Made by a program: the position numbers and the translations under genes. 64,000 bases of DNA from Deltaproteobacteria bacterium. GTDB lineage: Bacteria > Desulfobacterota > Desulfomonilia > UBA1062. Below the pieces are notes generated by a model that worked only from the letters and a program-made list of their open reading frames with translations, had not been told where the DNA came from and made no database searches. Location of the stretch: the NCBI GenBank assembly GCA_018434685.1, contig JAHDOV010000004.1:348808-412807 (forward strand), written 5' to 3'. Every line of letters begins with the position of its first letter. The first letter of the stretch is position 1. This document shows, one piece after another, positions 58,895 through 63,011 of the stretch.

Positions 58895-59086
58895 TTTTAT
58901 GTTACTTTCTTTGCGTGCACAAGAGAAAGTAACCAAAGAAATGCACCCCGCGAAGCCGCCCTTCGGGTTCGTTCGCTCACTCGGGAAAAATCAGCTCGCA
59001 ATTAAACTCGCTCCATTTCATTACGCTCAGACAGAATTGCTCGTTTTTCTGATTTTTCCCTCCCTCGCTCACCGGCTTCAAGGGGA
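58895..59086 (+). repeat. about 190-bp structured repeat, left copy, inverted relative to 62711-62908
   Basis: About 85-90% identical to the reverse complement of 62711-62908. Contains a terminal 10-bp-stem hairpin (58901-58933), a CCC-UUCG-GGG hairpin and a GGGAAAAATCAG...CTGATTTTTCCC long stem. The listed ORF 58899-59129 is an artefact. Confidence 0.8.
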
Positions 59087-59295: not shown

Positions 59296-61692
59296 TCATG
59301 TTTCAAAGCCTTCTTTATCTCTTTCCGATCTTTTGCTGGTAAGCTTTCTCCTGCGCTTTTTTCTCTCTGCGTCACTCCACTCAGACCACGAAGGGAGGTT
59401 AAGATAGAGTTGTAGAGTGGCGTCGGCAAGCAAATTGAGTTCTCTCAAATCATAATCGCGCTCACTATAGCGATCGTACAAACCACCTTTATCTTTCCAA
59501 GCCTCTCCGATACTATGGGAAAAAAGTTCCATGCCCGTCAACACAATAACATGGCTGCTCACTTTTCTATTCAATCTTTTCCTTCGTTCAGAAAGTGCCA
59601 GATTTCGTATCATCTTTACTTCTGATTCCTCTAATGCATTGTTGAGCGTTGCGAAGACCAGCGCAGCTCCAGGAAAAGCAACGGCCAAGTCCTTCATTCG
59701 GTCTATGTCCTTGCGTTCGAATTTATTGAAACTCTTACACTCTGCATGAACGATGTAGGTCCCCTTCTTGCGCCATGTAGATGGCTTGTATAGGCAGGTG
59801 AAATCTGCCTCTAAACGTTTCCCGTCTTTCTCCGCTATATAACTAAAAAGAGGAGTGACAAAACGATCAAAATCACCACCCAATAGCCTGAGAGTAAGCA
59901 GAACCGTAAAAGCTCCTTGGGCAACGGACCCTGCGAAGGGACCATGAGCCCGGTATGTCCATTGAATATTTTTAGGAGACTTCAGTGGTGGTGAGTAGTC
60001 AGAGAGACAGAAACGACAGCGTAGTTCATAGTCGAGCTCATTTAGTTGATACCAATTGTAGCGCGTACACACAGGACATTGAACTTTAGCCCCTAACCTC
60101 AAGGCGTTTACGGACAGCAATCCTTCCAGAAAGCGTTCAGCATCGTAGAATAGTCCGTCTGACTGGATAACTTGTTTAAGCTTCGCTACGACCGCCTGGT
60201 AAGGTTTTCCAGCTTCTTTCTCCAACTCCCCAAGCAACTCTACAACGCCATAGTGGGCGAGTTGCGAAATGCCGTAAACACCGCCGAGCTGCTTCAAAAG
60301 CTGTTTTGCGATTCTTCCAGGTCCAGATAAGGATACTTTCCAACCTCGTTCTCGAAACCAATGGGTCATGACTTTCTCAGATCGAGGTAGGTCGAGGAAT
60401 ATCAAATCCCTGTAATTGTGTGCTAAAAAAACAGGGCCAAATTTCGAAAATCGCCAATTGAAGTAACCTAGGTTTCCTATTGCTGAGGACAATTCTCGGC
60501 TTCCTTCAGGAAAAACCTCGGCTAGGGGCTCCTTTGATGTGAAAAATCGAAAGCTGAATTCGTTGGCAAATTTAGGTTTGCCTGAGTAATCTTGAAATAC
60601 GTCGATTTCCGGATCTTGCGACCGCAGCTCCAGTCTCTCCTCGCCCTCAGTGATTCTTCGCTCCTCCTCGTAGGCAAAGGGAAAAGCGATGTCCTCGCCG
60701 GGCACGTTGTCGCGCGCCCAGGCATCCCATAAGCGAGGATACCACCACTGAAGTAGGTACTGATCAGGTTTCGGGATATTTAGCGAGTGGCAAAAATCTT
60801 TGACCAAATCCTCTGAAAGCGAACGGGACCTCTGGACTGTGGTGTGGTAAAACATTTCAGGATTGTGCCTATAAGGCTGATAATTTTTTTCGATGAAGTT
60901 CAAGGCAAATGCCTTTACGCTGGCCATGTTCGCGACCTGGATGGGGATCGGAATCACATTGACGCCTGCAGCTCGCAGATTCCAGTAGTCGATTACGTCT
61001 TGGGCACTTGTTGCGTCGCAAACGAACAAAGTGGGGTTGCGAAGAGGTTTTTCCTGTAATGCCCAAGAGCTTAACCTTCGAGGAAATAGGTTAGGTGACT
61101 TCAGAATGTCAAGAAGCTTGCTCAGAGTTACTTGGCTTTTTGAAATGCCCGGATGGGTAAGGAAATGCTCGTCGATGATCTTCTGGGCTGTCTTCGGAAG
61201 CACGCCAAAGACACTTGCTAAGAAGAGACGGTAGGCTCGCGGTAATTCAAGAAAAATGACCTGGAGATCATCATTTCTCTTGTATTTCAGCTCTTTCTTG
61301 ATGAAATCATTCAGTAAATCGATCAACCCGATGCCGTATGTGGGGGTTACTGAGTTTTCTAAAGCTCCAATCAATTCATCAGCGTTAATGATGTCTCGAT
61401 TACCCACCTGAAACACACGATTTGCGCAACTACCAATGGGTACCACCAGATCGGGGTCAAACCCGGTTAAGTATCCTTCAACAATCTCCGAAGGAAGTGG
61501 AAGATGCCGAACACGATGAGCCTCCCATTTGACAGGAGTACGACGGTAAACCGGAATTATTGGATTATAACTTCCACCCCAAAGGAAAGTGCTGAGTTCG
61601 ATAGCGCGGAAAAGCCCCACACGATCTGCGGGATCAACCAGAAATCCCACTCTTAAGGGTCGTACTTTAATGTTTATGTTTCCCGAAGCCAC
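59296..61692 (-). CDS. large uncharacterised protein (798 aa) with zinc ribbon and putative PD-(D/E)xK nuclease-like C-terminal motif; candidate defence/mobile-element protein
   Basis: GTG start at 61690-61692. C-x2-C-x17-C-x2-C (CPVCTRYNWYQLNELDYELRCRFC). D...ExK candidate (EADFTCLYK...TYIVHAECKSF). Lower GC than the flanking genes. No similarity to any family I recognise. Confidence 0.6.
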   Translation of the reverse strand: MASGNINIKVRPLRVGFLVDPADRVGLFRAIELSTFLWGGSYNPIIPVYRRTPVKWEAHRVRHLPLPSEIVEGYLTGFDPDLVVPIGSCANRVFQVGNRDIINADELIGALENSVTPTYGIGLIDLLNDFIKKELKYKRNDDLQVIFLELPRAYRLFLASVFGVLPKTAQKIIDEHFLTHPGISKSQVTLSKLLDILKSPNLFPRRLSSWALQEKPLRNPTLFVCDATSAQDVIDYWNLRAAGVNVIPIPIQVANMASVKAFALNFIEKNYQPYRHNPEMFYHTTVQRSRSLSEDLVKDFCHSLNIPKPDQYLLQWWYPRLWDAWARDNVPGEDIAFPFAYEEERRITEGEERLELRSQDPEIDVFQDYSGKPKFANEFSFRFFTSKEPLAEVFPEGSRELSSAIGNLGYFNWRFSKFGPVFLAHNYRDLIFLDLPRSEKVMTHWFRERGWKVSLSGPGRIAKQLLKQLGGVYGISQLAHYGVVELLGELEKEAGKPYQAVVAKLKQVIQSDGLFYDAERFLEGLLSVNALRLGAKVQCPVCTRYNWYQLNELDYELRCRFCLSDYSPPLKSPKNIQWTYRAHGPFAGSVAQGAFTVLLTLRLLGGDFDRFVTPLFSYIAEKDGKRLEADFTCLYKPSTWRKKGTYIVHAECKSFNKFERKDIDRMKDLAVAFPGAALVFATLNNALEESEVKMIRNLALSERRKRLNRKVSSHVIVLTGMELFSHSIGEAWKDKGGLYDRYSERDYDLRELNLLADATLQLYLNLPSWSEWSDAERKKRRRKLTSKRSERDKEGFET

Positions 61693-61841: not shown

Positions 61842-61880
61842 TCAGGCGGGGCGAGGGGGGAATCGAACCCCCCGCGCTTA
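61842..61880 (-). other. tRNA 3'-half-like fragment (T-arm GGGGG-TTCGATT-CCCCC plus acceptor 3' strand); no complete cloverleaf
   Basis: Minus-strand sequence gcgcGGGGGGTTCGATTCCCCCCCTCGCCCCgcc. No plausible 5' acceptor partner sits within tRNA distance (nearest is about 117 nt upstream). Confidence 0.4.
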
Positions 61881-62153
61881 CTCCCATATATAAAAGGTGA
61901 AAGTCACAGCAACTCATCCGTTCCCCTGTAGGGTTGTAGATCGCCCCAGCAGCGCTCCCCCCGCCACTACACAAATCAATTTGATAGTTGTTCCCATTTT
62001 GACCTCCATTCTCGTCTTAATCTCAATAGCTAAGCTCCCAACTATTTGGATTAATAACGATAGGCCCAATATGAACCCAACTAGGAACACATATGATTCG
62101 ATGTAACTGACACCTATACATGGGCATCCTTTACATAATTCAGATAAATAACT

Positions 62154-62393
62154 TTATTCTCTTGGGAGTAGATCTTTTGCATTCCGGGATGGAATAGGCA
62201 GCCCTTTTTCTTTCAGGTGATCAATAAGACGCTGCTCATAAGGCGGAGCCCAGCCATCCCAGTTACCCTCATAACAAGACATGCAGACAGAAATGTTATA
62301 ACTCTTAATGTATCTTCCATCATACACATGTGGGCCCATTTGAAATTGCCCATCACAAATAAAACATTTATCCATGAACTTCTTTTCAGACAT
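62154..62393 (-). CDS. small zinc-ribbon protein (79 aa) in a very AT-rich segment
   Basis: Internal start MSEKKFMDKCFICDG...CMSCYEG (two CxxC pairs) with GGAGGA RBS 5 nt upstream. Surrounding 61.98-62.70 kb is conspicuously AT-rich. Confidence 0.5.
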   Translation of the reverse strand: MSEKKFMDKCFICDGQFQMGPHVYDGRYIKSYNISVCMSCYEGNWDGWAPPYEQRLIDHLKEKGLPIPSRNAKDLLPRE

Positions 62394-62710
62394 GTGTCCT
62401 CCAATGCCTAAATGCAGAAAGATACTATGCAGATAAAAAGGTTGCATATGGGCTGTTAGCTAAGCAAATGCAGATATAAAACAACAAGCTCATAACACCT
62501 TTCAATAAATTCAATTAATCTTAATATTATATCATTATCTGCAAATTAATGTCCATATGTTTCCTCAACGGCATAAAGTAGAAGATTATAGATCCCGTGC
62601 CAATATGTTCCATAACCCAAGAATGCACATAATCATTAGAGACCTATTGCCTCTCTTGGTGATATGTTTTGAGAGATCATAGCTGAATAACTCAGCACCA
62701 GAACCAATTC

Positions 62711-62908
62711 CCCCTTGAAGCCGGCGAGGGAGTGCAGGAAAAATCCGAAAGACGAGCAATTTTGTCTGAGCGGAATGAAATGGAGCGAGTTTAATTGCGA
62801 GCGGATTTTTCCTGTGCGAGTGAGCGTACTCCGCTGGAAGCGGAGCGGCTTCGCGGGGGTGCATTTCTTTGGTTACTTTCTTTCGTGCAAGCAAAGAAAG
62901 TAACATAA
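62711..62908 (-). repeat. about 190-bp structured repeat, right copy (inverted)
   Basis: Reverse complement aligns with 58895-59086. The stems are maintained by compensatory changes (CAGGAAAAATCCG...CGGATTTTTCCTG; CTCCGC-ttcca-GCGGAG). The listed ORF 62586-62906 is an artefact. Confidence 0.8.
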
Positions 62909-63011
62909 ATACATATAGATAGAATCAAGCTATCGATTAAATAGGCCCTTTAGTAAAGTGACATAGGTAACACTCTAAAAAAATAGATTTGAAAGAACAC
63001 CCTCCTATGGG

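Follow-up and report, generated by a model that had tools for sequence, protein, structure and literature searches.

A Candidate Single-Gene Immune Nuclease from a Widespread, Unnamed Family of Zinc-Ribbon Proteins

An unnamed protein family, one member of which is encoded in a 64,000-nucleotide stretch of DNA from a deltaproteobacterium (the window), is a strong candidate for a new immune nuclease encoded by a single gene, with a putative activity. This candidacy is based on the presence of a nuclease domain behind a zinc ribbon in a family that spreads horizontally and that is found in anti-virus islands and restriction–modification (R-M) operons. A role in defence or in conflict with mobile elements is likely; the more specific reading, in which the protein is an immune nuclease complete in one polypeptide, whose gene bacteria gain horizontally as the cargo of defence islands, has, in our estimation, a probability of around 0.45. 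An earlier note on the same DNA had put the gene forward as a candidate nuclease and defence effector, and this proposal is supported, its defence part by guilt by association.

The Gene and Its Protein

The ORF list contains, as the earlier note had it, a 798-codon frame at 59296..61692 on the minus strand. It is a complete CDS with a GTG start; an N-terminus of MASG or MAWG is common to the protein and its full-length homologues, which form an unnamed family of about 790–800 residues. Residues 1–330 (60703..61692, minus strand) correspond to two tandem Rossmann-like alpha/beta domains, a putative sensor or regulatory module, in which R11, P12, W38(GG), D81, G163, D232, and N238 are invariant and the motifs WGGxYNPIIP, FDPD, and DxIDYWNLRAxG are found. 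The structure models then show a beta-rich region, residues 331–435 (60388..60702, minus strand), with a low-confidence loop at 388–399; the F-A-N-E and AEVxPxG motifs of this region are conserved in the homologue alignment. A helical, winged-helix-like region follows (residues 436–530; 60103..60387, minus strand), which has a conserved LSxxGRIAxQLxKQLGG and which, in some relatives, contains a helical insert of 45–60 residues. Since split database matches reflect this insert, located before the ribbon, effector swapping and truncated architectures were rejected as explanations for them.

The zinc ribbon, C539-x2-C542-x16-C559-x2-C562, occupies residues 531–585 (59938..60102, minus strand) and is deduced from the translation, its conservation, and the predicted beta-hairpins. 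The cysteine codons are at 60076–60078 (C539), 60067–60069 (C542), 60016–60018 (C559), and 60007–60009 (C562), all on the minus strand, and the peptide that they delimit, CPVCTRYNWYQLNELDYELRCRFC, is encoded at 60007–60078 (minus strand). The PD-(D/E)xK nuclease domain, residues 586–735 (59488..59937, minus strand), contains E628, D630, H649, E651, and K653; the codons of D630 (59803–59805), E651 (59740–59742), and K653 (59734–59736) lie within the DFTCLYK...HAECK segment (59734–59805, minus strand), and downstream of this triad, T719, E722, and L723 are invariant. In the structure model, the protein ends with C-terminal helices and a tail rich in Lys and Arg (residues 736–798 plus the stop; 59296..59487, minus strand), the basic character of which is conserved across homologues.

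The Nuclease Domain and the Zinc Ribbon

Conservation was analysed in an alignment of 41 relatives at 27–56% identity. Of its roughly 800 columns, only 20 are invariant, and among these are C539, C542, C559, C562, D630, E651, and K653. A hypergeometric calculation gives a chance of about 2e-12 that all seven of these positions, specified beforehand, would be among the 20, so the ribbon and the D/E/K motifs are conserved far beyond chance. The earlier note had described the D-x(n)-E-x-K arrangement correctly; it had also recognized the four cysteines, which are indeed present and invariant in the 41 relatives, but had given their central spacing as x17 rather than x16. Strands are predicted for the ribbon at residues 531–538, 545–549, and 577–582, with two CxxC knuckles and beta-hairpins; metal binding is predicted, and there are weak Zn_ribbon and Elf1 profile matches here.

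The same note had suggested a restriction-endonuclease-like fold, and this is what the predicted structure contains: a canonical alpha-beta-beta-beta-alpha-beta nuclease core, which is the core fold of the PD-(D/E)xK proteins. D630 is on the strand formed by residues 625–636 and E651-C-K653 is on that formed by residues 646–653; in all 41 relatives, an acidic residue on strand 2 is combined with (D/E)xK on strand 3, as in the PD-(D/E)xK superfamily. With two fold-search programs, the best matches were PD-(D/E)xK nucleases. The C-terminal domain very probably has both the fold and the active site of a nuclease, and cleavage is predicted.

A Large and Patchily Distributed Family

The protein had been termed an orphan, which is wrong: it has at least 333 close homologues, and the family comprises 2,217 representative clusters and occurs in 441 of 185,579 species genomes (0.24%), patchily distributed over more than 15 phyla. 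The hosts include CPR bacteria and an archaeon, and the length of around 800 residues is strongly conserved from Desulfobacterota to CPR. Homologues are also found in Methylobacter tundripaludum SV96, Bradyrhizobium sp. Pha-3, Roseateles oligotrophus, and Luteimonas sp. and on a Photobacterium damselae plasmid; their presence in cultured strains makes experiments practical.

The assertion that no part of the protein resembles a nameable family has fared better. Searches of Pfam, NCBIfam, PADLOC, and PDB sequences (phmmer and a family profile) with the query and 41 divergent members identified no family. In PADLOC v2.0.0, PDC and HEC models included, the query had no match at E ≤ 10, and the 41 members gave two matches only, each for a single member (E around 0.009). 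A literature search revealed no paper describing the architecture of the 798-residue protein. The family is large, unnamed, and without any annotation in Pfam, NCBIfam, PADLOC, or PDB.

Phages carry next to no members of the family: there was no match in 50,697 phage genomes, and the 2.9 million IMG/VR contigs yielded a single weak one. A phage origin was accordingly rejected.

Genomic Context

In the window, the gene is in an island with a GC content of 0.45 versus 0.57 for the rest, flanked by inverted repeats, in agreement with the earlier description of a low-GC island next to repeats. The arms of the inverted repeat (I1/I2), to which no strand is assigned, bound the putative low-GC insertion outside the protein, at 58896..59085 on the left and 62711..62909 on the right; they are 87–94% complementary, 202 nt align between the two arms at 85% identity, and there are only two copies within the window. 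A tRNA fragment had also been reported. A tRNA-like sequence does exist between the gene and a small upstream ORF (61848–61947, minus strand), with a perfect T-arm and 3' half of the acceptor; however, its match to tRNA-Sec is below threshold (22.4 bits versus a gathering score of 47), and ARAGORN found no tRNA anywhere in the window, so that it is a tRNA remnant at best. The upstream Cys-rich ORF (79/97 residues, 62154–62447) was rejected as a partner because it occurs at this locus only.

The survey of neighbourhoods covered 86 loci and 979 neighbouring ORFs, which were clustered all against all, with R-M enzymes scored within 7 kb; in addition, 125 neighbouring proteins were scanned for known families. 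R-M families are the commonest neighbours: as a raw count, Type I or Type ISP enzymes are within 7 kb at 20 of the 86 loci, and the gene follows hsdS at seven. In at least seven loci, belonging to two sub-lineages, it is translationally coupled between hsdS and hsdM, and some of these operons run hsdR-hsdS-gene-hsdM. The other settings include the cargo of Tn7/comM islands and the interval between IS21 copies. The suggestion of a defence-type context is thus borne out, in that homologues are in defence or mobile neighbourhoods rather than core ones and that unrelated genomes repeatedly have the gene within or beside known defence systems. The GC content of the gene is below that of its flanks in 60 of 65 loci. 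Since the mobility genes next to it are of different kinds at different loci (IS21, Tn7-like, and recombinases of the tyrosine and serine types), the gene is cargo rather than engine. A conserved partner such as a methylase, an antitoxin, or a cyclase was rejected, as no cluster of neighbours occurs at more than nine of the 86 loci; neither the survey nor the scan revealed cas or cyclase families among recurrent neighbours.

The earlier note had named in advance three outcomes, concerning the fold, the conservation of D/E/K, and the neighbourhoods, that would count against it; none of them appeared.

Relationship to Known Systems

The nuclease domain is similar in fold to that of Card1, Can2, Cdn1, and VC1899, which are ancillary nucleases of CRISPR systems (CARF plus PD-(D/E)xK, "DUF1887"). 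The 798-residue protein is, however, twice as long, with an additional beta-rich region, winged-helix region, and zinc ribbon; its N-terminal module retrieved no CARF structure, the domain that binds cyclic oligoadenylates, in the fold search; it matches neither PF09002 nor any other CARF family in Pfam, nor any family in NCBIfam; and neither type III CRISPR nor any cyclase is recurrently associated with the family. The substrate of Cdn1 is ssRNA, and because the known enzymes differ in substrate, those of the Card1 type cannot be transferred to this protein.

Other defence genes have been found within Type I R-M operons: TgvAB is a precedent (PMC11411939), and Payne et al. 2024 (10.1101/2024.01.29.577857) described guilt by embedding and the HEC/PDC candidates. 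The present gene resembles TgvAB, PrrC, and these candidates in its position between hsd genes, co-directional and tightly spaced, and in the way that defence is deduced. It differs from the two-gene TgvAB in being a single gene, and its product has no GmrSD, ABC-ATPase, or HEPN domains and is unrelated in sequence to the models of PADLOC v2.0.0.

How Might the Protein Act?

Under the immune-nuclease reading, the winged helix, the zinc ribbon, and the basic C-terminal tail would grip nucleic acid, with DNA the likelier substrate, and the D630/E651/K653 site would catalyse metal-dependent cleavage of phosphodiester bonds. The N-terminal module of about 440 residues, which contains the tandem Rossmann-like domains with their own invariant polar and aromatic residues and which is without functional analogue, would hold the nuclease off until it bound a cue signalling invasion. 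This would be the logic of Card1, Can2, and Cdn1, minus the CARF domain or a dedicated cyclase. Within Type I R-M operons, the co-expressed protein would act as a second line of defence. Gating by a ligand or cue, as opposed to constitutive, target-specific restriction, is a possibility to which we give somewhat less than even odds. More doubtful is the idea that the bilobal Rossmann-like module is a new receptor for infection signals, independent of any cyclase of the CRISPR or CBASS type, that switches on a Card1-like PD-(D/E)xK domain; candidates for such signals would be a phage or host nucleotide or metabolite, the end of a nucleic acid, or a Type I R-M complex that has ceased to work.

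A different, rather unlikely, explanation is a stand-alone restriction endonuclease like those of Type IV, in which the N-terminal domains, winged helix, and ribbon read a mark of non-self DNA (e.g., hypermodified bases), so that marked DNA is cut, the cell survives, and the host's Type I R-M systems are complemented. Such an enzyme would stand alone, as the gene does in having no conserved cognate methylase or other partner at the 86 loci. Where the gene lies within a Type I R-M operon, it takes the place that modification-dependent enzymes such as TgvAB have there, and some family members adjoin enzymes of Type ISP or Type IIG. The order of modules, with those of DNA-binding type preceding a cleavage domain for which FokI-, AspBHI-, and MspJI-like domains are among the fold matches, is in its favour too, as is the fact that the putative DNA-binding helix is highly conserved, which argues against the sequence-specific recognition of Type II. 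Yet Pfam, PADLOC, and the N-terminal fold search found no reader of the SRA, EVE/PUA, YTH, DUF262/GmrS, or Mrr_N type, and although the module may be a novel fold for reading modified bases, Rossmann-like pockets usually accommodate nucleotides or small ligands rather than flipped bases. Moreover, the best fold matches are ligand-gated effectors and not Type IV enzymes. Compared with the Type IIS and Type IV enzymes FokI, BspD6I, AspBHI, MspJI, and LlaBIII (nuclease domain), the protein has N-terminal modules unlike their recognition domains in the fold search, no cognate methylase, and no detected SRA-like reader.

PD-(D/E)xK domains also serve in DNA repair, and NucS, Mus81, and SfsA are among the fold matches. 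The gene could therefore have no role in immunity and encode instead a selfish or mobility nuclease (of the homing type or an island addiction module) or a niche enzyme of DNA repair or processing that rides on mobile elements. Consistent with this, it always stands as a lone gene in DNA of horizontal origin, near diverse recombinases and transposons, and the 200-nt inverted repeats that bracket the window copy have no transposase between them. We nevertheless consider this improbable: the changing mobility genes point to cargo, no antitoxin-like partner emerged from the clustering, and a housekeeping repair enzyme would hardly be expected in as few as 0.24% of species. As for the repeat, 22 unrelated metagenome contigs contain its hairpin core but not the gene, which led us to reject it as a transposon end specific to the family; it is a generic dispersed hairpin element.

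Least probable of all is a guard similar to PrrC, the classic gene embedded almost exclusively in Type I R-M (Payne et al., 10.1101/2024.01.29.577857), in which the co-translated R-M complex restrains a suicidal nuclease until a phage anti-restriction protein frees it: the coupling between hsdS and hsdM would fit, but over three-quarters of the loci examined, the 64-kb window included, lack an R-M enzyme within 7 kb, so the protein must act autonomously, and Pfam and profile searches found no ABC-ATPase or anticodon-nuclease domains in it.

Significance

Defences that combine a sensor and a nuclease in a single gene are already a known kind. If the immune-nuclease reading were validated, the family would be named as a defence system whose sensor domain is new, and it would provide one more clear example of an effector that acts as a second line from within Type I R-M operons. 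A new nuclease scaffold, programmable or switchable by a ligand, might also come of it. Were the receptor interpretation to be true, the N-terminal module would be a new and widespread sensor domain for prokaryotic immunity, present in more than 15 phyla.

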